This document shows, one piece after another, positions 2,912 through 13,378 of a DNA stretch of 64,000 bases. The stretch's first letter is position 1, and each line of letters starts with the position of its first letter. Both the position numbers and the translations under genes were made by a program. The stretch is from contig OY970061.1 of the NCBI GenBank assembly GCA_963705255.1, positions 416,001 to 480,000 on the forward strand. Reading direction: 5' to 3'. The notes under the pieces were generated by a model. It had not been told where the DNA came from, made no database searches, and worked only from the letters and a program-made list of their open reading frames with translations. The DNA comes from an uncultured Methanoregulaceae archaeon. GTDB lineage: Archaea; Halobacteriota; Methanomicrobia; Methanomicrobiales; Methanospirillaceae.

Positions 2912-5581
2912 ATGCTTTCATTAAAAATCAGATGGGATACCCGTTCTAGGATCGCGGCGGTTATCCTTTTTTTTATGGCCATAGCCCTCCTTCTCCGTCT
3001 CATTCCCGCGTTGTTTATCAAGGATGCAGGTTTTTTGTATACCTATGACACGGACGGATGGTACACCCTGCGCCAGATCGAGGTGATGGTGCACCATTTC
3101 CCGCAGTACAACTGGTTTGACCCTATGACTGCGTACCCCACCGGGAAATTTATCGACTGGGGGCCGCTGTATCCCCTTATCGCTGCACTTTTCTGCCTGA
3201 TCGGCGGGGCGACATCCCAGGCTGCGATCGTTTCAGCGGCCGGCTGGGTCTCCCCGATCATGGCCATGCTCATGGTCCCGGTTGTGTACTACGTGGGAAA
3301 GACGATCTGGGACTGGCGGGCCGGGATCGTTGCTGCCGGCCTTGTTGCAGTGATATCCTACCACTATTTCTTCCTCTCGTCCTACGGCCTGATCGGGCAC
3401 CACATCGCCGAAGCTCTCTTCAGCACGATATTTTTGCTGGTATATCTTTCCTCTCTCGCGTATACACGAAAATACGGACTGGACAGAAAAGATCTCCGCA
3501 CATTTTATGTTCCGGTACTGCTTGCTCTCGGAGGAGGCGTTATCTATTTTTGCGCACTGCTTGCTTCGCAGACGGTTATCCTGCTATTGTTCGTTGTGGG
3601 CATCTTTACCTTTATCCAGAGCATTCTTGATCACTGTACCGGCCGGTCTTCCCTTGACCTTCTGATCCTGAATGGAATCTCCCTTTTGGTATCGGCAGCG
3701 CTCCTGCTCCTTTTTGGATTCAAACAGACCGGTTTCTCGATCACCCAGTATTCCCCTGGCCTTGTGTATGTGCATCTTGCCGTTCTCGCCGAGACCGGGC
3801 TGCTCGTGGGTATCTCTTCGATATTTATGGGGAAGAGGTACTCCTATTTATTCAGCATCGGCGCACTATGCGCAGCGGGGATTGCCGTGATCGAACTATA
3901 TCCCCCCTTCCAGTATCTGAGTGCTCAGGGACTTGGACTCATATTTGGATCCATGCAGTATTCAGTGGGCGTTGTGGAAACACAGCCCCTCACCCTGCCG
4001 CTGGCGTGGGACTATTTCGGGCTTGCCCTTCTCCTTACCGTTGGCGGGTTCCTGGTGCTGGGATATTCTGTCCTGAAAAAACCGAAGGCCGAATGGATCT
4101 TTCTTTTGATCTGGTCAATCGTGATGCTCCTGTTGACCGTCAAGTTCCAGAGATTTGATTACTACAGCACCGTCAATATCGTGCTTTTGAGTGCCATCTG
4201 CATCACGGAGCCCTTCCGCTGGCAGGATGCCGGCGTGAAAGCAAAAATCTCTTCCCTAGTATCCCGGATTGTCCCGGCTCCTTCAGCTGCTTCAGGAGTG
4301 GAAGGCCCTCAGGGAAGACCGTCGGGTGCTCCTGAACGTTCGGGGAAGAAAAAGAGGACCCCCCGTTCCCGGGATGACCGGGATGCCAGGGGGACGCTTA
4401 AGGTCCTGTGCCTGGCACTGGTCCTTCTCCTTACCGTGGTTCTTGTGGGTGTTTCCGTGTACAAGGATCTCGATCAGGGGCTCCACACGCCGGATCATGA
4501 ACTGTCTCCCGACTGGATCGAATCGCTCAGATGGCTTGGAAATGCCACGCCTGCCACGGGAGTCGATTATTTTGGCGAGTACCCGTCTTCCGGGTATAGG
4601 TATCCCAACAGCTGGTACGGGATCCTGGCATCATGGGATTCCGGCCACTGGATCACGTTCTTTGCGCACCGGATCCCGATCACCAATCCGTTCCAGGACA
4701 ACCTTGCCGGCAGCAACGGTGCTGACGCTTTCTTCCTTGAGCAGAACGAGCCACAGGCTGATGCGATCCTGGAAGGCCTCGGTGGGCGGTACGTTATCGT
4801 CGACTCGACCCTCGCGGTAGACAAATTCACGAACCTTATCCCCTGGGCGAGCGATTCGACCGATATTTCGCCCTACATCTCGTGGTTCATGCTCCCGGAG
4901 CCTGGCAACACCAAAAATCTGGACAAGGTCCACCGGTTCAACGACGGGTATTTCCAGACGGTGGTCTCCCGTCTCTACAACTTTGACGGATCCATGACCA
5001 TGCCAGTGAATGCGGAGTATATCCCGTACGTCATCCGGCAGGTACCAGCGGCAGGGGAATCCGCAGGGGATGTAAACGGGTACGCAAGAGTGATCTCGGG
5101 TGATGTGCCGGTCGATATCTCTTCGGGGACCGGGAACCTCACGCTCATACCGGAGGGGCAGGTGCTTTCTTCATCGGCCTATGCCGGCCTCTATTCCAGT
5201 CTCCCGTACGAGCCGGTCGCGACCGTTCCGGCCCTGAAACATTACCGGCTCGTCCACGAATCACCGGACAATGCGTCTGTCGCGGCATTTCCCGAGTCGG
5301 ATACCGTCATGCTCCCCGATATAAAATCGGTCAAGGTTTTTGAGTATGTCAAGGGGGCACAGATAACCGGTGACGGGATCATTGAGGTCCACGTCATCAC
5401 CAACACGGGACGGACCTTTGTCTACCGCCAGGCGAGCGAGAACGGTATGTTTACCGTGCCGTATTCTACGTCGGGTTCATCCTGCGAGGTCAGGGTGACA
5501 GGGCCATACCATATCCTTGGGACAGACCGCTACATCAACGTGACCGAGGAAGACGTGATGCAGGGCAACCGGATTTCCTGA
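2912..5581 (+). CDS. aglB: STT3/AglB-family oligosaccharyltransferase, divergent motifs
   Basis: 889 aa with ~13 TM helices. EL1 YDTDGWY..R, WFDP..YP.G..IDWGPL, VVETQP, QRFDYY, ASWDSGHWI..R.PITNPFQ, DK-type DSTLAVDKF, LKHYRLVHES, VKVFEYVKGA, NGMFTVPYST. Confidence 0.92.
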   Translation: MLSLKIRWDTRSRIAAVILFFMAIALLLRLIPALFIKDAGFLYTYDTDGWYTLRQIEVMVHHFPQYNWFDPMTAYPTGKFIDWGPLYPLIAALFCLIGGATSQAAIVSAAGWVSPIMAMLMVPVVYYVGKTIWDWRAGIVAAGLVAVISYHYFFLSSYGLIGHHIAEALFSTIFLLVYLSSLAYTRKYGLDRKDLRTFYVPVLLALGGGVIYFCALLASQTVILLLFVVGIFTFIQSILDHCTGRSSLDLLILNGISLLVSAALLLLFGFKQTGFSITQYSPGLVYVHLAVLAETGLLVGISSIFMGKRYSYLFSIGALCAAGIAVIELYPPFQYLSAQGLGLIFGSMQYSVGVVETQPLTLPLAWDYFGLALLLTVGGFLVLGYSVLKKPKAEWIFLLIWSIVMLLLTVKFQRFDYYSTVNIVLLSAICITEPFRWQDAGVKAKISSLVSRIVPAPSAASGVEGPQGRPSGAPERSGKKKRTPRSRDDRDARGTLKVLCLALVLLLTVVLVGVSVYKDLDQGLHTPDHELSPDWIESLRWLGNATPATGVDYFGEYPSSGYRYPNSWYGILASWDSGHWITFFAHRIPITNPFQDNLAGSNGADAFFLEQNEPQADAILEGLGGRYVIVDSTLAVDKFTNLIPWASDSTDISPYISWFMLPEPGNTKNLDKVHRFNDGYFQTVVSRLYNFDGSMTMPVNAEYIPYVIRQVPAAGESAGDVNGYARVISGDVPVDISSGTGNLTLIPEGQVLSSSAYAGLYSSLPYEPVATVPALKHYRLVHESPDNASVAAFPESDTVMLPDIKSVKVFEYVKGAQITGDGIIEVHVITNTGRTFVYRQASENGMFTVPYSTSGSSCEVRVTGPYHILGTDRYINVTEEDVMQGNRIS

Positions 5582-5628: not shown

Positions 5629-5919
5629 TCAATAATACCCATATTTCTTATGCGCTTGTTCTATCGTAAGTATATCCTCTACAATAACCAGTTTTTCAAC
5701 GTCATCGATGGTATAAAACGCGGTATAACGGTGAGAGATATGCAGGCGGTAGATGATTACGCCGCCTCTTAAAACCAGTTTTTCTTTATCCCCGTGGCGT
5801 CCCGGATATGGATCATTTTCAAGACGTTTCAGGGCATTTTTGATTATTCTGCGTGTCTTATCCGGTAGACAATTAACATCCTCTGATATTTCATACCAGA
5901 GTTTAAGTTCAAAGGTCAA
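5629..5919 (-). CDS. RelE/ParE-family type II toxin
   Basis: 96 aa; IKNALKRLENDPYP...EKL...YRLHISHRYTAFYTID..K.V.V pattern; TTG start overlaps the antitoxin stop. Confidence 0.8.
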   Translation of the reverse strand: MTFELKLWYEISEDVNCLPDKTRRIIKNALKRLENDPYPGRHGDKEKLVLRGGVIIYRLHISHRYTAFYTIDDVEKLVIVEDILTIEQAHKKYGYY

Positions 5920-6116
5920 TCCTTAATCTCCGAAAGAGATACGTAATCTCCTTTTTTCCTCTGACTCCACCTCTTTACATCTTCCTCAAGACGCCGTTTT
6001 TTGCGCTCCTCTATCATATCCGCAAGGAGCTCAGAATACGTCTGACCAGCCGAACGCATCTCTGCAAGATCCTTCCATATTGGTTCGGATACCGGGATCC
6101 GCTTTACTGCTGACAT
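5916..6116 (-). CDS. Putative antitoxin (ribbon-helix-helix-like)
   Basis: 66 aa from MSAVKRIPVSEPIWKDLAEMRSAGQTYSELLADMI...YVSLSEI; directly upstream of and overlapping the toxin. Confidence 0.75.
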   Translation of the reverse strand: MSAVKRIPVSEPIWKDLAEMRSAGQTYSELLADMIEERKKRRLEEDVKRWSQRKKGDYVSLSEIKD

Positions 6117-6312
6117 GATCATATTGTAAGTATGGCACACATGAAAAATATTATCACCATTTATCCGCTCCTGCAACCTCTTCCCGGAAAATCTCCCGGG
6201 CGGTCAGGACTCTCACGATAAAAGCACCAACTGATGGAGAAGGACAATTAAAATTGCAGGCAGAGCCGTTTCAGTTCAGAAGAATGCAGGCCTTTATAGT
6301 GTTGTACCCCGG

Positions 6313-7473
6313 CTAGTGAGCCGGTCCTGTTTTTGCAATCACCGATTGGTAATACTCTTCGCACTCTGCCGCGATGCAATCCCAGTTGTATGCTGCCACA
6401 GTTGTGATACAGGCCTCGCGCATCTCCGCATGGTGCCCGAGCGCCCTGCGGATCTTTTCCGCGAGATTCTCCGCTGAAATGGACGAGAGGAACCCGTTTT
6501 TCTCCGTGATGAGATCCCGGACGGCGTTTGCCGGGTGATCGATTGTCACTACGGGCAGTCCGCACGCGAGCGCTTCGAGCGCGGTTATCCCGAATCCCTC
6601 GCGGGTTGACGGGAGCACGAAGACTTTTGAAGACTTGAAAAACCCGATGAGATCGCTATGATCTTCACAGAATCCTTTCAAGATAATATGATCTTCCAGC
6701 CCCGGTTTCCGGATCAGCGACTGTATCCAATCGCGTTCCGGCCCGTCGCCGATAATGAGAACCTTAAGATCAGGAAAATGCGGGACAAGCAGCGCCGTGG
6801 CCTCGATGAGGAGGTCCACGTGTTTCTCCCGGATCAGCCTGCCGGGAAAGATGAGATCGGATCTCTTTTCGGATGAACGGGCCGCGGCGATCTCTGCGAG
6901 GTCAATCCCGTTGGGGATGACGACAGGACGCAATCCGGGAGACAGGCGCCGGAGTCGTCCCGCGGTTGTCTCCGATACCGCGATGGTATCGGGCGTTATC
7001 CGGGAAACGAACCGCTCGGTGATCTTTCCGAACACTCCTTGGTATCCCAGGTACTCGTACCAGTAGTCGTCCCAGACCTCGTGCCAGGTGATGACAAGCG
7101 GTGTTCTTTTGATGATGGCAAGGAATTTTGCCGAGAGGCAGGAGAAAAAAGGAAACTGCTGGCAGTCGATGATATCGAACCGGTACCTTCCTAAGTGCGG
7201 GATGAGCCGGAGGCCGAAATTACATGCTTCTCCCACGGTCCTTTTTCCCCCGGCATAGAGGGGACGTGACGGGCAGACCCCATGCAGGATCACCCCGTCG
7301 CGGATCAGGATATCTTCCCCCTCCCAGTATTTCATGCCGAAGAGGTGGACCTCGTGGCCCCTTTTTGAAAGCCGCACCGCCAGCTCCCGGACCCGTTTCT
7401 CCACCCCACCTTTCACGTACGGGTAGATGACATCATAGACAAACGCGATCTTCATCCGATCCGTTTCAGGCAT
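6313..7473 (-). CDS. GT4 glycosyltransferase
   Basis: GGVEKR, GRLIREK, EGFGITALEALACGLPVV. Confidence 0.92.
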   Translation of the reverse strand: MPETDRMKIAFVYDVIYPYVKGGVEKRVRELAVRLSKRGHEVHLFGMKYWEGEDILIRDGVILHGVCPSRPLYAGGKRTVGEACNFGLRLIPHLGRYRFDIIDCQQFPFFSCLSAKFLAIIKRTPLVITWHEVWDDYWYEYLGYQGVFGKITERFVSRITPDTIAVSETTAGRLRRLSPGLRPVVIPNGIDLAEIAAARSSEKRSDLIFPGRLIREKHVDLLIEATALLVPHFPDLKVLIIGDGPERDWIQSLIRKPGLEDHIILKGFCEDHSDLIGFFKSSKVFVLPSTREGFGITALEALACGLPVVTIDHPANAVRDLITEKNGFLSSISAENLAEKIRRALGHHAEMREACITTVAAYNWDCIAAECEEYYQSVIAKTGPAH

Positions 7474-8622
7474 GGCCGTTGTTCTCGTTCAGGAGCATCA
7501 TGCTCTGGAAGATGGCAAAGAGGAAGACCTGGATGCCGCTCACGATCAGGACCAGTGACACGATCGCTGTGGAGATCTCCGAGAGGAATCCGAACCCGAC
7601 GGAGACCCACTGGATCAGGATATTGAGGCCGAGGATTACGCCACCCAGAATAAGGATGATGCCAAGGACGAGGAATTTTTCCAGGCTGCTGTACTGCATG
7701 ACGAGCGTGATGATGCCTGCTTTCCTCTCATACCCATGGATGACCGAATAGGACTTCATCAGAAATGCGGTAAGGAGCACCTGGACACCGCCCATAATCA
7801 GGATGGCGCCGACGATGAACGTGTGGAGGTGCGAGGACTCGACATTCCCTTCAAGGGCAAAGAAGGCCATCAGGAGGAGCCCGACCAGCGAGAACAACAG
7901 CCCCGGTATGGCAAGGAACGGAAGGGGCTTCATGAGAAGCACGAACCGGATGTGCCGCCATCCGTCGGCAAAACTGTGTAACTTGGATGGTGCTGCCCGT
8001 GGATAATAACTGACCGGGACTTCTTCGATATGCAGCCCCTCTTTTGAAGCCATCACGAGCATCTCGGATGCAAATTCCATCCCGCCGGTCTTCAGGTCGA
8101 GTTGCTCGAGCGCATCGCGGGTGATTGCCCGAAAACCGCTGTGAGTGTCCGTGAAACAGGTATGGAAGATGTGGTTGATCATCCACGTGAGGAGCGGGTT
8201 GCCGATGTACCGGTGCAGGGGGGACATCGAGCCCGGGTGGATGGTACCCGGAACCGGGACCCGATGACGAAGTCCGCACCGCTGTTTAACGGTTCCAGGA
8301 GGAAGGGAATCTCGGAAAAATCATAGGTATCGTCGGCATCGCCCATGACGATGATGCGGCCCTGCGCGTGCCGGAACGCGCTCAGGTAGGCGTTGCCGTA
8401 CCCGCCCTTTTCCGGCGTGATAACCCGCGCACCCAGCGACTGCGCGATCTCCGGTGTCCGGTCGGCCGAGGAGTCGGCAATGATGATCTCGCCGCTTAGG
8501 TTTTTGCTGCGGAAGACGGCCTGGATTTTTTTTATGCATTCGCTAATGGTACGTTCTTCATCAAGCGTGGGGAGGATTACCGAGACTTCGACCGGGGATC
8601 CGCTGAGTGGGGAGGGTTCCAT
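7466..8622 (-). CDS. GT2 polyprenol-phosphate glycosyltransferase (DPM1-like) with C-terminal TM helices; frameshifted at ~8245
   Basis: ORFs 8179-8622 (VILPTLDEE, MGDADDTYD, VIGSRF) and 7466-8227 (DTHSGFRAI, GMEFASEM, KLHSFADGWRH) join if one G is restored (GSRFRGTIHPGSMSPL). Confidence 0.85.
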
Positions 8623-8775: not shown

Positions 8776-9702
8776 TTATACAATATTTTTCATCGCGTAC
8801 CGGCCACCAACGGCAAAATGAAAGAGCATGGTCACTCCCCGATCAAGTATTGCGAGTGAGAGCGCAGCCGAAACAGGCATCCCCAATCCGACAAGAACTG
8901 CCGTCATCCCCCCTTCGACAAGTCCCAGGCCGGAGAGCGTGATCGGGATGATGGAGAGCGCGCTGATCAGGGGCAGAATCAGGAATAATTCCGGGAGCGG
9001 GAGTGAATAGCCCAGCCCCAACGCTATCAGGACAACGCGAAGAGCCTGGAAAACCCATGCCAGAACGGTGAGAAGAATGCCTTTGACAAAGACATTCCTC
9101 TCATTCCGGAATTCGGAGATTGCGGTCTGGACCTGTGCCGTAAAAGCCTGAATTCCAAAGTACGGAATTTTCTGGGTCCATGAAAATATCCTCTCATTCT
9201 GCCAGAAGAGGATGATGGCACCCACAAAGACCACAACAAGAACGATGAGGGAGACCACGGGAAGTACCGATGCAAAATGTGAGGAATATACCACGACTGC
9301 AGCGATGCCCAGAGTGGTCAGGACTATGATATCGATGAACCGGTCTATTATCACCGAGACGGTACCCTTGTGGAGATCCATCCGGTCTCTCACCAGAACT
9401 GCACGGGTGAGATCGCCGATCCGCCCCGGAGTGAAATCAGAATAGAGAACTCCTCCGGCAAATGCCTGGTACGCTTCCCCTAACGGGAGGTACCCCCTCA
9501 TATGCGCAACGATGATCTTCCAGCGGATGGTGAGTATGAGAAATGCAAGAGCATAGACCAGGATTGCGGCGATCACAAAAACCGGGTTGATGGATCTTAT
9601 GGAACTGATTACTGCAGACGGAGATACAAACAAGAGCAACAGGATTATGAGAATCAGTCCAATGGTCAGGCGCAGAAAAAACTTCACCGGGAGACGAGCC
9701 AT
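8776..9702 (-). CDS. Lysylphosphatidylglycerol-synthase TM domain / UPF0104 flippase-like membrane protein
   Basis: RWKII, FTPGRIGDLTRA, VIIDRFID, IPITLSGLGLVEG, LDRGVT family motifs. Confidence 0.85.
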   Translation of the reverse strand: MARLPVKFFLRLTIGLILIILLLLFVSPSAVISSIRSINPVFVIAAILVYALAFLILTIRWKIIVAHMRGYLPLGEAYQAFAGGVLYSDFTPGRIGDLTRAVLVRDRMDLHKGTVSVIIDRFIDIIVLTTLGIAAVVVYSSHFASVLPVVSLIVLVVVFVGAIILFWQNERIFSWTQKIPYFGIQAFTAQVQTAISEFRNERNVFVKGILLTVLAWVFQALRVVLIALGLGYSLPLPELFLILPLISALSIIPITLSGLGLVEGGMTAVLVGLGMPVSAALSLAILDRGVTMLFHFAVGGRYAMKNIV

Positions 9703-9906
9703 TCCATAGTTGACTGAGAAGTAATCCTTTTTAATACCAGTGCACGGGATCGAAAAACTGGAGCCCCCTCATTTTGAGAGGGTATTGATAAAGACACGGT
9801 AGAGGGGTACGAAAATCTCCGGAACCCGTGAAATTACATAAAAAATCATCCATTCCGGAGGAATACCGGTCCGTTATTCTGAACCAGACCGATCCAAGGG
9901 AGGTTC

Positions 9907-11916
9907 TCACGCAGTGGAGAATGAATAAATTACCGCGTTTCCATTGTCGTACAGCCTGTTGCACTCAGACTCGATCATTGAGGACTCGGTCTCGTCAAGA
10001 GGTTGTTTTTCTTTCATCCAGTCTTCCCCAAATTCCAGATATTCTTTCATCCGTGGGAGAATGACCAGATAGTGCTGCTCTGAAGCGGTACCCACCGCCT
10101 GAGGATACCCGGCCTCCCGGACGAACGAAAAATACGTCTGGACTGTGAGAGGGAAATCTGCCAAGATGATGGCTTGTGCAGGATAGCCAACGTACACATC
10201 GCTTTCGATTTCCCCTTTGGCCTTATTGGCATCCAGCCATACAATACCAGAGATTTCCGTGGGATCGTGATTAATGACCAGGCTCCGGTTGTCGTACAAC
10301 GGGTGGCCGGGTTCAAAGGGCTGCCCGAAAAAGACCACCGCCGGAAATGTCGTTACGATACTTGTGAGAACCAAAGCTGTGAGTAAGACGGACAGGAGTA
10401 CCTTGGAATGAATACATTGTGCGACTCTGCTGAGTCCGCATGCTGCGACGATGACAAGCGGGATATAGAGAAATTCCATCAGCCTGAGGGGATCCACAAA
10501 TGACACGAGGCCGCTCATCGAAAGGACAAGTGCTGACGATAATACCGCCACCCATGCAAGAACAAAGAGACGATCCTTTTCCAGAAAATAATACAGCCCG
10601 ATCAGTGCGAGAACAGCTATGCAGATCCCGTTGAACAACATAGGTATGGGGTAGGAGAGGAAGAATGTGGACTTCCCAATGACAAAATTAATTACAAGAA
10701 TGCATCCTATCACCGAGCCGATGATCATAACCGCGTAAATAATTTTTTTCCTGATCAGAATACGCTGTGCGAGTGTCTGCAACGCAAGGATCTTTTCGGG
10801 GATCAGCACCGGTATGAGATAAAGGATAATCACGCTGATCAGGAGGAGGGGTATACCATAATCCGAATGAAAAAGGGAATTTGTCAACCCGCTGAATTCA
10901 GAAAACTCATACTCCAGTCTCCCTATCCACCACGCTATGATCGCAAGGATTGTTGTCGTTGTAATGAAACCTGCAATCAGACTTGCCCTGCGCACCCACT
11001 CTCTCCTGCACATTAGGTAAAGGAACACAAGAGAGATGACGATCCAGACACCAAGGAAGATCAGTGCTGAAAGATGATGGGTAAGTACCATGCCGATGAT
11101 CAGCAGGAGGGAGACTGCAAGAAATCCGGGTTTTTGATCCCTTATTGACCGGAACGATATATAGAGGGCGAGGATGAAGAGTGCAATACCGAGAGTTTCC
11201 CGTACTCCCTGTGTTGTCCAGTGCAGGTAGGGTGTTCCTGAAAGGAGGAGTAATCCTGCAAAAAATGCAGTCTCCTCAGATGAGATCTCCTTTACCCACC
11301 GGTACACCACAACAATCGCAATGATGGAAAGGGGAGGGATACAATATTTGAGAAGGGTCAGGGGGTACATCCCGGCAAAAAGGGAAAGCGAGGCGACGAT
11401 GACATGGAGGACGGGGAGCTGGGCCGGGTAGAAGGATGGTGAAACCGACTGGTACGCCAGGATCCTGAGGATCATCCCGTATTCAAACCAGGGATCTCCC
11501 CATGGCAGATAGTCGAACCTCAGGGAGAGGATCAGTGAGGTGAACAACCCTATTGCAATGAGGCTGAAGAGTTTGTGTCGTGAATTACAGGCAAGGAGGA
11601 CTGCGACACCTAAAAGAATGATGGCCGGGAGAAGCGCAACTACAGTTATACGAGAGGTATAGAGAAAGAGACCGGCTCCGAGTATGGATGCTACCAGTGC
11701 GACGATCCTGGTTCGTTCATCAGAAAAAAAAACTGACAGGAGGTCTTCACCGGAAGGAACTGGCATTTCAGGGCACTCCTTTTTGGGATATTCCGCGGGA
11801 ATGCCGGTGGTTTTTGGTACTGAAAATACCTCCCGCATGATTACCGTAAATCCTCTGATCGGCAGGATTCCCTTTACCAGATAGCATTCCACCGATGGTC
11901 GTTTCATCTGTTTCAA
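9907..11916 (-). CDS. Large polytopic membrane protein, GT-C-like (DUF2206-type); true start may be downstream of 11916
   Basis: >12 TM helices, first-loop LPWGDPWFEY, LTHHLS, DPLRLMEF, C-terminal EISGIVWL and RLYDNGNAVIY. Confidence 0.6.
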   Translation of the reverse strand: MKQMKRPSVECYLVKGILPIRGFTVIMREVFSVPKTTGIPAEYPKKECPEMPVPSGEDLLSVFFSDERTRIVALVASILGAGLFLYTSRITVVALLPAIILLGVAVLLACNSRHKLFSLIAIGLFTSLILSLRFDYLPWGDPWFEYGMILRILAYQSVSPSFYPAQLPVLHVIVASLSLFAGMYPLTLLKYCIPPLSIIAIVVVYRWVKEISSEETAFFAGLLLLSGTPYLHWTTQGVRETLGIALFILALYISFRSIRDQKPGFLAVSLLLIIGMVLTHHLSALIFLGVWIVISLVFLYLMCRREWVRRASLIAGFITTTTILAIIAWWIGRLEYEFSEFSGLTNSLFHSDYGIPLLLISVIILYLIPVLIPEKILALQTLAQRILIRKKIIYAVMIIGSVIGCILVINFVIGKSTFFLSYPIPMLFNGICIAVLALIGLYYFLEKDRLFVLAWVAVLSSALVLSMSGLVSFVDPLRLMEFLYIPLVIVAACGLSRVAQCIHSKVLLSVLLTALVLTSIVTTFPAVVFFGQPFEPGHPLYDNRSLVINHDPTEISGIVWLDANKAKGEIESDVYVGYPAQAIILADFPLTVQTYFSFVREAGYPQAVGTASEQHYLVILPRMKEYLEFGEDWMKEKQPLDETESSMIESECNRLYDNGNAVIYSFSTA

Positions 11917-11958
11917 GGGTCTCGGTTTTTAGACGGCAGATCATGGAGCATCTCATTG

Positions 11959-12972
11959 TCATGAGGATTGAGACAGGGTGTTATTTGTTACAAAAACTGG
12001 CACCGTGGCATTGATCTGGAGATGGAGGTTGCGGTAGCTGGCGTTTATCCGGTCCTGTCCTGATATTTCCTGTCCGGGAACGGTTTCATTGAAGAGCAGG
12101 AACTCCATCCGGTAAAATCCGGCAGCGGGTGCAGAAAACTCAAGCGGAAGAACCGACGTCTGATTGTGATCTAGGATCACTGAGTAGGATTCCAGGGGTG
12201 TGAAACCTGATGATGCAATAGGTGTCGTCTCGTTTACCGGTACCAGGTATACTTCGACAGTATAGTTTATCGTCCGGTATTCATGGTTTCCGATACCGGT
12301 ATACAGTAGTTGCAGGATACCGGGGCTTATCATTTCCGGATATGCATCTGCAGTCCTCTTTCCTCCCAAGATAAAAAATTCCGTATATTTGTCTCCTGCT
12401 GTTGGCAGCGAGATCACAAGAACTGTGGATGCGATGACCATGAGAATGGCAAAAACACCTATTCCAAAAATAATCCGGTTACCGGTAGACTGATTTGTTA
12501 ACATGCAGTCTTTTGAGATGCGGCGTAGAATTTCCGGTGCCGGAATGGTATATCGTGATTCAGGTGGGATCGCAGCGCGGCGATACGTTGCAATAAAAAC
12601 CATTGAGACGATAAAAACCGTAAGAGAGACAAGTACCGAATCCAGCCGGATCCCCCACGAGATAAAGTTCAAAAGGAGGGCAATTAAAGGAGTCACTACA
12701 AGGCTTGCGCCGATTGAGAGAACTAGCCGTTCAATCGTGCCGATATCCACCGAATCAGGGAATAATGCAGCCATCAATACATAACCGGGGATAAAAAGAA
12801 TCATTGGAATGGCGAGGATAAGCCGCAGGAATGTCAGGCTGACAATCGGTAGAATAACCGAAAGAATGCACAACGCGGTCCAGAACAGAACGATTTTCAA
12901 ATCGCCGGAAATGATTGAGCTGCTATTTCCGGATGATATTTTTCTCCCCTGTTCAGGTTCTGGAGGTTCCAT
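11959..12972 (-). CDS. DUF1616-family membrane protein (full length)
   Basis: LFIPGYVLMAALFP, IERLVLSIGAS, YTEFFILG...ADAYP, GIGNHE...NYTVEV, YRNLHLQIN. Confidence 0.85.
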   Translation of the reverse strand: MEPPEPEQGRKISSGNSSSIISGDLKIVLFWTALCILSVILPIVSLTFLRLILAIPMILFIPGYVLMAALFPDSVDIGTIERLVLSIGASLVVTPLIALLLNFISWGIRLDSVLVSLTVFIVSMVFIATYRRAAIPPESRYTIPAPEILRRISKDCMLTNQSTGNRIIFGIGVFAILMVIASTVLVISLPTAGDKYTEFFILGGKRTADAYPEMISPGILQLLYTGIGNHEYRTINYTVEVYLVPVNETTPIASSGFTPLESYSVILDHNQTSVLPLEFSAPAAGFYRMEFLLFNETVPGQEISGQDRINASYRNLHLQINATVPVFVTNNTLSQSS

Positions 12973-13378
12973 GCGGTTTTTCCCAATCAGGAGCGGTTAT
13001 CCTTCTAACTCCACTCATTGCCGTCAGTAATAATGTTATGGCGGACAATGAAAAAAGAACAGAGACCTGCGATACGCCAAAGGGTGTATAGGTTAATAAA
13101 AATCCGGTAAATGCTGCTATGCAAATGCTCAGGCCGATGCTAAGAGCAATGCGTTCGAGAGAATCAAACTCTTTTTTTTCCGGGAACAGCGCAGAAATGA
13201 AAACATAACCTGGGACAAAAAGAATAAGAGGTAATCCAAGAATGACACGCAGGAGTGTCTCATTGAGAGGGGGCAAGAGGGTAACTGAAACAGCTAAAAG
13301 GATGTAACATACAACAAGCAGAAGATCGTAAACTCTGGTTATTGGGATTATATCCTTTTTTGAGAGAGTATTATTCAC
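12953..13378 (-). CDS. DUF1616 N-terminal transmembrane module only
   Basis: LFVPGYVFISALFP, LERIALSIGLS; ends after ~4 TM helices. Confidence 0.8.
   Translation of the reverse strand: MNNTLSKKDIIPITRVYDLLLVVCYILLAVSVTLLPPLNETLLRVILGLPLILFVPGYVFISALFPEKKEFDSLERIALSIGLSICIAAFTGFLLTYTPFGVSQVSVLFSLSAITLLLTAMSGVRRITAPDWEKPHGTSRT

Follow-up and report, generated by a model that had tools for sequence, protein, structure and literature searches.

To our knowledge, every oligosaccharyltransferase (OST) studied, whether bacterial, archaeal, or eukaryotic, reads the Ser or Thr at position +2 of its acceptor through a WWD motif together with a DK or MI motif, and holds its metal ion with the Asp of external loop 1 (EL1), a DXD Asp, and the Glu of external loop 5 (EL5). 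The 64,000-nucleotide stretch analyzed here (the window), G000:C1:416001-480000 of a 2.60-Mb one-contig genome with a completeness of 89.5%, encodes a paralog of the archaeal OST AglB, here called AglB2, in which several of these residues are replaced. For the AglB-L of Archaeoglobus fulgidus (AfAglB), the metal is described as bound by Asp47, Asp161, and His163, with Glu360 acting via a water molecule, and the Ser/Thr pocket as formed by WWDYG together with DK/MI (PMC8342417). The first Trp of this pentapeptide and the DK Lys, which contacts the +2 residue, are described as pocket elements conserved across the three domains (PMC7226087).

AglB2 is real: a second AglB that a Methanoregula-like methanogen maintains under selection. 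With a probability of roughly 0.55, we read it as an active and donor-dedicated transferase whose acceptor pocket has changed and whose target is probably different from the usual Asn-X-Ser/Thr sites. An AglJ-like family 2 glycosyltransferase (GT2) would put the first sugar on dolichyl phosphate and a family 4 glycosyltransferase (GT4) would extend it to a short glycan. AglB2, still active as a lipid-phosphate-glycan transferase, would then take this glycan and deliver it to an acceptor recognized otherwise than Asn-X-Ser/Thr.

Family membership and motif states of AglB2

The first-pass annotation of the window, made from the sequence without database searches, had described an intact open reading frame (ORF) of 889 aa, and the frame at 2912-5581(+) is indeed open from end to end. 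AglB2 is a homolog of the STT3-family GT-C OSTs: in a profile search, TIGR04154 (archaeosortase-A-associated oligosaccharyl transferase, archaeo_STT3) scored 673.9 bits (curated cut-off 450) and matched from profile position 2 to 831, out of 831, and three Pfam domains (PF02516 STT3, PF22627 AglB core, and PF18079 AglB_L1) were above their cut-offs. An AlphaFold2 (AF2) model built from 60 clade sequences has a mean predicted local distance difference test (pLDDT) score of 69.2, and the first four Foldseek ranks for it are four PDB entries of AfAglB-L (TMq 0.58-0.66), headed by 7e9s_A at 0.66.

Residue equivalences were taken from phmmer comparisons with PDB chains, in which AglB2 was aligned to A. 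fulgidus AglB-L (3WAJ/5GMY). The query segment 'glighhiaealf' falls on Af 'gfnDHHiweafw', and 'gilaswdsghwitf' falls on 'gvisWWDYGhwiea', which places GHH at nucleotides 3395-3403 and SWDSG at 4631-4645, exactly where the first-pass annotation had put them. The EL1 Asp of the first DXD is present as D48 (Af Asp47), the EL5 Glu as E356, and the phosphate-binding Arg (Af Arg426, PglB Arg375) as R414, so that the annotation was right in calling the EL1 Asp, the EL5 Glu (in VVET), and the Arg of QRF retained; NPFQ is aligned as well. Other positions depart from the pattern. The metal ligand Asp161 is replaced by G162, with His163 kept; the Thr position of the TIXE/SVSE motif is Gly; the metal-site Arg (Af Arg154, PglB Arg147) is L155; and the first Trp of WWDXG is replaced, while its second Trp, Asp, and Gly are kept. 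The DK motif (DxxKxxxM/I) had also been listed as kept, which holds in part: the alignment matches K638 to Af K618 and L642 to M622, but Ala635 occupies the Asp position and, as shown below, hardly any relative has the Lys.

The annotation's SWDSG for WWDYG also includes a Tyr-to-Ser change. The substitution is real, but it falls on position 4 of WWDXG, which is already described as variable in Euryarchaeota, for example as WWDNG in active Methanococcus AglBs (PMC11407970, PMC5131992). The role given to this Tyr, a contact to the reducing-end sugar of the donor, does not belong to it, since the Tyr that contacts the N-acetyl substituent on the first sugar is described as Y468 of PglB and Y521 of Stt3, which lie outside the pentapeptide (PMC7226087). 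Judged from the alignment, the real departure in the AglB2 pentapeptide is the missing first Trp and not the Tyr-to-Ser change.

Table 1. Positions (window coordinates) of AglB2, its motifs, and the two neighboring glycosyltransferase genes; fractions are counts among clade proteins with a residue at the position.
Feature	Position	Strand	Basis
AglB2, STT3-family OST homolog	2912..5581	+	open ORF, TIGR04154, three Pfam domains, Foldseek 7e9s_A
EL1 motif D46-T47-D48; D48 = Af Asp47, D46 completes DXD	3047..3055	+	alignment; D46 and D48 in 106/106 proteins covering the region
L155, aligned with the metal-site Arg (Af Arg154 / PglB Arg147)	3374..3376	+	Arg in 0/109
G162-H163-H164 at Af Asp161-His162-His163; Asp ligand lost, both His kept	3395..3403	+	phmmer alignment; H163-H164 in 109/109
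EL5 V354-V355-E356-T357 (TIXE-type); Glu kept, Thr position = G353	3971..3982	+	E356 in 117/117
Q413-R414-F415-D416; R414 = Af Arg426 (phosphate site), D416 = subclade-specific acidic gain	4148..4159	+	alignment, clade counts; R414 in 120/120
S574-W575-D576-S577-G578 replacing WWDYG	4631..4645	+	phmmer alignment
N592-P593-F594-Q595 = Af NPFQ571 (DGGK position)	4685..4696	+	NPFQ 117/120, SPFQ 3/120 (together 120/120)
A635-V-D-K638-F-T-N-L642 at the DK motif (Af E615-T-G-K618-Y-Y-A-M622)	4814..4837	+	phmmer alignment
GT4 glycosyltransferase, 386 aa, convergent with aglB2	6313..7473	-	PF00534 130.5 bits, PF13439
AglJ-like GT2 (dolichyl-phosphate hexosyltransferase-like), two frames here	7466..8622	-	PF00535 on 8179-8622

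Conservation of the altered pocket and metal site

Conservation was assessed in the 120 best database proteins (clusters at 90% identity), with proteins that have a residue at a given position as the denominator, and in 41 genomes from the genus and the order. The AglB matches in these genomes form two groups, one with 46-55% identity to the query (43% in G025, from another family), which never carries the first Trp, and one with 33-40% identity, which reads WWDYG. AglB2 is a member of an accessory paralog clade in the Methanoregulaceae and some other Methanomicrobiales; the named database records come from Methanoregula, Methanoregulaceae, and a few other Methanomicrobiales metagenome-assembled genomes (MAGs), and the closest is 92% identical.

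None of the 120 clade proteins has Trp at position 574, and the commonest pentapeptide is VWDAG (n = 69). Position 638, that of the DK Lys, is Thr in 90, Ser in 19, Arg in 6, Lys in 2, Leu in 2, and Ala in 1. The pocket for the +2 Ser/Thr thus appears rebuilt, with the first Trp gone, position 4 Ala or Ser, and the DK Lys mostly Thr or Ser, which suggests that the acceptor is recognized differently. Since these changes are clade-wide, recognition of the +2 Ser/Thr in the same way is unlikely. AglB2 could alternatively be an ordinary N-X-S/T OST isozyme, in which Trp575-Asp576 still bind the +2 hydroxyl and which differs only in its lipid-linked glycan or the timing of its expression. This would fit the conservation of W575 and D576, both at least 90% conserved in alignment A1, the natural variability of position 4, of which the WWDNG of active Methanococcus AglBs is an example (PMC5131992), and the dedicated GT2/GT4 neighbors described below, which indicate donor specialization. 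It is unlikely, however, as the first Trp, absent from all 120 clade proteins, and the DK Lys, kept in two of them, are elements described as conserved in three domains (PMC7226087), and the first Trp is kept by 118 of 137 diverse family representatives.

The latter figure comes from a fast alignment of 150 diverse representatives of 50%-identity clusters plus the query. Within it, WWDYG was found in 95/137 and the first Trp was missing in 19/137, and position 162 was Asp in 125/132, so degenerate AglB copies do occur elsewhere in the family, as a minority.

Position 162 is less uniform within the clade (Asp in 84, Gly in 23, Ser in 2, and a gap in 11 of the 120 proteins), whereas the EL1 Asp, both His, the EL5 Glu, and the phosphate-binding Arg are invariant (Table 1). 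Position 155 is Arg in most canonical Methanoregula copies and in none of the 109 clade proteins. The 25 clusters with [G/S]HH are the 25 nearest to the query, and the motif is also present in six GTDB loci, each from its own species. GHH, noted in the first-pass annotation for this protein, therefore marks a subclade and is not private to the protein, and most of the clade keeps DHH. All 25 proteins of the subclade share L155, G353, and D416 as well as D46, D48, H163, H164, E356, and R414, and 24 (96%) have Gly at position 49 in place of Ser, the remaining one having Thr. Position 416 is acidic in none of the 84 DHH members of the clade. This gain, like the clade-wide loss of the Arg154 equivalent, had escaped the first-pass annotation.

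The metal site of the subclade has been rebuilt as well, with the ligand Asp161 turned into Gly or Ser, Ser49 into Gly, and a new Asp416 placed two residues past the phosphate-binding Arg. Asp416 or Asp46 would supply the missing carboxylate. A re-sited ligand is suggested by the co-occurrence of S49G with the gain of Asp416 and by the position of Asp416 two residues from that Arg.

Two further AglB variants were seen among the relatives. The paralog at L083:5989-8679 sits on a long branch as sister to the [G/S]HH subclade; it has VHH, has lost the EL5 Glu (VLNT), and adjoins an IS1595-type transposase with no GT4/GT2 pair beside it; judged from these features it is likely an inactivated copy. 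A third AglB type of the genus, in L051 (G015) and L052 (G020), keeps WWDYG, has YHH at the DHH position and a Lys replacing the phosphate-binding Arg (IKYEYY), and belongs to a separate lineage in which the Asp161 equivalent is also lost.

Phylogeny and selection

A FastTree phylogeny was built from 72 rows, that is, the 81 of 117 sequences with at least 800 aa (36 shorter or X-containing rows excluded) minus nine duplicates. The paralog clade comprises 35 rows with a support of 99 and the [G/S]HH subclade six rows with a support of 100, and the terminal branch of the query, at 0.044, is not long. Ratios of nonsynonymous to synonymous substitution (dN/dS, Nei-Gojobori) among the six [G/S]HH genes lie between 0.135 and 0.203 in 15 of 15 pairs, which indicates purifying selection; between the query and its nearest relative (L058), dN is 0.042 and dS 0.222 (ratio 0.19). 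The idea that the variant motifs define a conserved clade under purifying selection is thereby upheld. The case that would have spoken against it, canonical close homologs and relaxed selection on this copy, is not what was found: the homologs share the motifs, and the short terminal branch and the ratio of 0.19 rule out relaxed selection on the query branch.

A sequencing or assembly error, or a decaying pseudogene, is an exceedingly improbable source of the variant motifs. Assembly indels do exist in this genome, with two in the canonical aglB, an apparent one in the GT2 gene, and a split phosphoglucomutase gene (all described below), and its completeness is 89.5% for a single contig. The aglB2 frame, on the other hand, is open throughout with TIGR04154 aligned over positions 2-831, and its substitutions recur in six GTDB species and in 25 distinct clusters at 90% identity that draw on several sources, with a dN/dS of 0.19 to the nearest relative. 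This recurrence rules out that GHH arose privately, or by error, in a single genome, and, as the first Trp is absent from all 120 clade proteins, the substitutions are neither chance nor error. Eight MAG loci (L072, L076, L077, L086, L094, L096, L103, and L105) have the paralog broken into two or three frames, and it is intact in other MAGs; the breaks seem to stem from assembly indels and not from decay.

The canonical aglB of the same genome

A second aglB lies 1.79 Mb away at G000:C1:2209632-2212244(-). It reads DHH, TVEE, RYEYY, WWDYG, and DTGK and is spread over three frames, with one frame shift in a G5 run and the other at ACCGGGCAGAAAC. Contigs of four public metagenome runs (X1-X4) were compared with this locus (L002); X1, with a depth below 5, may be the source sample, and the other three runs are from other studies. 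The run listing for this canonical-copy locus contained no RNA data set. Every run omits one letter at L002:1507 (genome 2209801), with changed over total depths of 4.24/4.24, 7.02/7.02, 10.2/10.2, and 46.7/46.7, and adds a C behind L002:2837 (genome 2211131), with 4.62/4.62, 8.63/8.63, 10.2/10.2, and 46.7/46.7. Since all four runs restore both sites at full depth, the splits come from errors in the assembly, and the gene is no pseudogene. Taken together, the three fragments share 97.6% identity with the unbroken gene in G041 (L114), the nearest relative, at a dN of 0.011, a dS of 0.091, and a ratio of 0.117. Judged from the repaired frame, the organism has a canonical AglB that looks functional, and AglB2 as the sole OST is ruled out by the repair in four runs, the identity to the G041 gene, and the low dN/dS.

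The term paralog, used in the first-pass annotation, is therefore apt: a DHH/WWDYG aglB co-exists with aglB2 in the host genome and likewise in G041-G045. With this canonical copy present in the same genome, the paralog would be free to specialize. A GT4, a hexapeptide acetyltransferase, GlmS, two GlmU-like genes, and a phosphoglucomutase come before the canonical gene.

Compared across one and the same genome pair, the paralog has a dS of 0.222 (query vs. L058) and the canonical copy one of 0.091 (vs. L114); recombination, codon usage, or differing histories could account for the gap. At L131:17200-18571 (G000:C1:2218200-2219571), a phosphoglucomutase/phosphomannomutase is divided into two ORFs, with domain I apart from domains II-IV, which again points to indel errors in the assembly, a single contig with 89.5% completeness. 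As a practical warning, homopolymer indels in this assembly give a canonical aglB that looks essential the appearance of a broken gene. Just downstream of the canonical aglB, the intergenic segment L002:871-1305 (G000:C1:2209165-2209599) stands out in each of the four metagenome runs by a summed contig depth that is 10- to 20-fold higher and by numerous short joints; a search of this segment for a tRNA, an Rfam family, or a tandem repeat found none.

Glycosyltransferase neighbors of aglB2

Beyond its 3' end, aglB2 is met by the convergent GT4 and GT2 genes (Table 1). The split of the GT2, with a break near 8250, is a single 1-bp gap relative to the intact 385-aa ortholog in L058, and is probably another assembly indel. 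The best NCBIfam model for the GT2 is AglJ (TIGR04182), with 188.6 bits for the L058 ortholog and 174.7 bits for that of L100, followed by a dolichyl-phosphate hexose transferase model. Because these scores fall below the equivalog cut-off of 325, the GT2 is AglJ-like and not an AglJ equivalog.

Ten related loci were annotated with their flanks. The convergent GT4 and GT2 pair stands beside the paralog in the window and in seven of the ten (L058, L060, L070, L063, L064, L089, and L067). In L100, whose paralog is 42% identical, aglB2, GT2, and GT4 follow one another on the same strand, and the start of GT2 overlaps the end of aglB2; L098 has the GT4 alone. A GT2 ortholog with at least 69% identity was found in 13 of 15 same-genus genomes with the paralog and in none of the nine without it, and in 11 genomes it lies within about 3 kb of the paralog; the two misses are G014, where the contig ends, and G017, a 56%-complete genome. 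The conserved AglJ-like GT2 and GT4 neighbors suggest a dedicated donor pathway, in agreement with the altered donor specificity that had been proposed from the motifs. The acceptors proposed along with it were non-canonical Asn sites, an O-linkage, or a lipid.

At window 5629-6176(-), the space between aglB2 and the GT4 gene, empty in relatives, is taken up by a pair of small ORFs (96 and 86 aa) that overlap each other. The first gives a borderline match to a ParE toxin (23.1 bits, cut-off 23), and the two look like an inserted ParE-like toxin-antitoxin pair. Beyond the GT2, at window 8776-13378(-), the glycosylation island goes on with an LPG_synthase_TM protein that is flippase-like (TIGR00374) and a PMT_2-like GT-C protein of 669 aa; it also holds two DUF1616 ORFs, one of 337 aa and one a 141-aa piece from the N terminus.

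Is AglB2 an active transferase?

That AglB2 still binds a lipid-phosphate glycan and carries out chemistry on it is suggested by the invariance of Asp48, His163/164, Glu356, Arg414, and NPFQ together with purifying selection and the linkage to a GT2 of the initiating type and an extending GT4. Alternatively, proteins of the [G/S]HH subclade may be non-catalytic or crippled, having kept the fold and the lipid and peptide surfaces and acting as a binding, regulatory, or scaffolding partner, or solely as a hydrolase of lipid-linked oligosaccharide. The loss of both the Asp161 ligand and the Arg154 equivalent would fit this, as would the further erosion of WWD in 4 of the 25 subclade proteins (SWTSG in three, SWESG in one) and the sister copy in L083, which by losing its EL5 Glu and its GT neighbors illustrates that inactivation does happen in this family. 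We nevertheless hold this explanation to be unlikely: a non-catalytic protein would have no obvious reason to preserve D46, D48, H163, H164, E356, and R414 in every subclade member, dN/dS remains at 0.135-0.203, and the GT4/GT2 pair is kept in four of five assessable subclade loci (window, L058, L060, and L070, but not L059).

Several of these observations also weigh against an active, donor-dedicated AglB2. The missing Asp161 is described as a direct metal ligand in AfAglB (PMC8342417), and the Arg154 equivalent is gone from the whole clade. Canonical Methanoregula AglBs carry Glu at the position of Asp416 together with DHH, so Asp416 need not be compensatory. In the AF2 model, pLDDT is below 50 at EL1, 153-160, EL5, and 546-650, exactly the loops in question, so neither the pocket geometry nor the reach of Asp416 to the metal site is readable and the model serves for the fold match only; the structural comparison proposed in the first-pass annotation thus confirmed the fold (TMq 0.66) and yielded no usable pocket. 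The Asp of WWD is itself changed in the four subclade proteins mentioned, which would fit a pocket freed from its old constraint. As for the donor genes, L059 has a 909-aa GT2-GT4 fusion upstream in place of the pair, and in G021 the GT2 and the paralog are 214 kb apart. Six of the nine genomes lacking both genes group in one subclade of the canonical AglB tree, so the co-occurrence of GT2 and paralog amounts to few independent events.

Taken further, the xWDxG clade might constitute a second, Ser/Thr-sequon-independent glycan-transfer system of methanogens, in which the +2 pocket is dismantled, a GT2/GT4 pair of its own feeds the transferase, a non-sequon Asn or a different nucleophile serves as acceptor, and the [G/S]HH metal site is run by a re-sited Asp416 or Asp46, unlike any solved enzyme. 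As a joint proposition this is tentative and rather unlikely.

A literature search found no account of the clade, of the GT2/GT4 linkage, or of an AglB kept under selection without Asp161, although the phylogenetic surveys of Kaminski et al. (2013) and of Nikolayev et al. (2020) may list such variants. A lineage with most of the pocket changed, and with one subclade also devoid of a direct metal ligand, is yet under purifying selection and linked to glycan-building genes. The AglB2 lineage is thus a natural experiment on which OST residues are truly indispensable. AglB2 is also a concrete candidate for the kind of sequon-ignoring or AglB-independent N-glycosylation that is on record for haloarchaea without an assigned enzyme. 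Haloarchaeal glycosylation is reportedly the subject of an Asn-Ala-Ser exchange result in Halobacterium. In Haloferax volcanii, the low-salt glycan is described as still being transferred in an aglB mutant (PMC5131992).

Comparison with known systems

Like A. fulgidus AglB-L (3WAJ/3WAK/5GMY/7E9S), AglB2 has an STT3 membrane domain, an AglB core, and an AglB_L1 peripheral domain, and it keeps the equivalents of Asp47, His162/163, Glu360, Arg426, and NPFQ571. The two proteins are about 20% identical and differ in the replacement of Asp161 by Gly, Arg154 by Leu, Trp550 by Ser, Tyr553 by Ser, and the TIXE Thr by Gly, and in the first DXD, which is Gly-Asn-Asp in A. fulgidus and Asp-Thr-Asp in AglB2.

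The canonical AglBs of the same genome and of other Methanoregula share TIGR04154, length, and domain order with AglB2. At 36-39% identity they differ from it in having DHH, the Arg, TV(Q/E)E, RYEYY, WWDYG, and DTGK, and for the same genome pair the canonical gene evolves about fourfold more slowly (dN 0.011 vs. 0.042).

Several single-subunit OST paralogs in one genome are also known from the three AglBs of A. fulgidus and the three STT3s of Trypanosoma brucei. We know of no report that any of these paralogs lacks the first Trp or the metal-ligand Asp. The T. brucei STT3 paralogs are described as differing in donor and acceptor specificity (PMC2722254, PMC3703281). More than 30 archaea are listed with multiple aglB genes, some with WWDXG variants, perhaps for different substrates (PMC5131992).

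A parallel to the locus as a whole is the AglJ/AglB dolichyl-phosphate pathway of Haloferax volcanii, in that the methanogen locus has a GT2 most similar to AglJ beside an AglB-family transferase, together with a further soluble-type GT. AglJ adds the first hexose in that pathway. The methanogen locus differs in that its GT2 scores below the AglJ cut-off, only two GTs are conserved, and the transferase lacks the canonical acceptor pocket, but the logic appears to be shared, in that a glycan would be built on dolichyl phosphate and then transferred.

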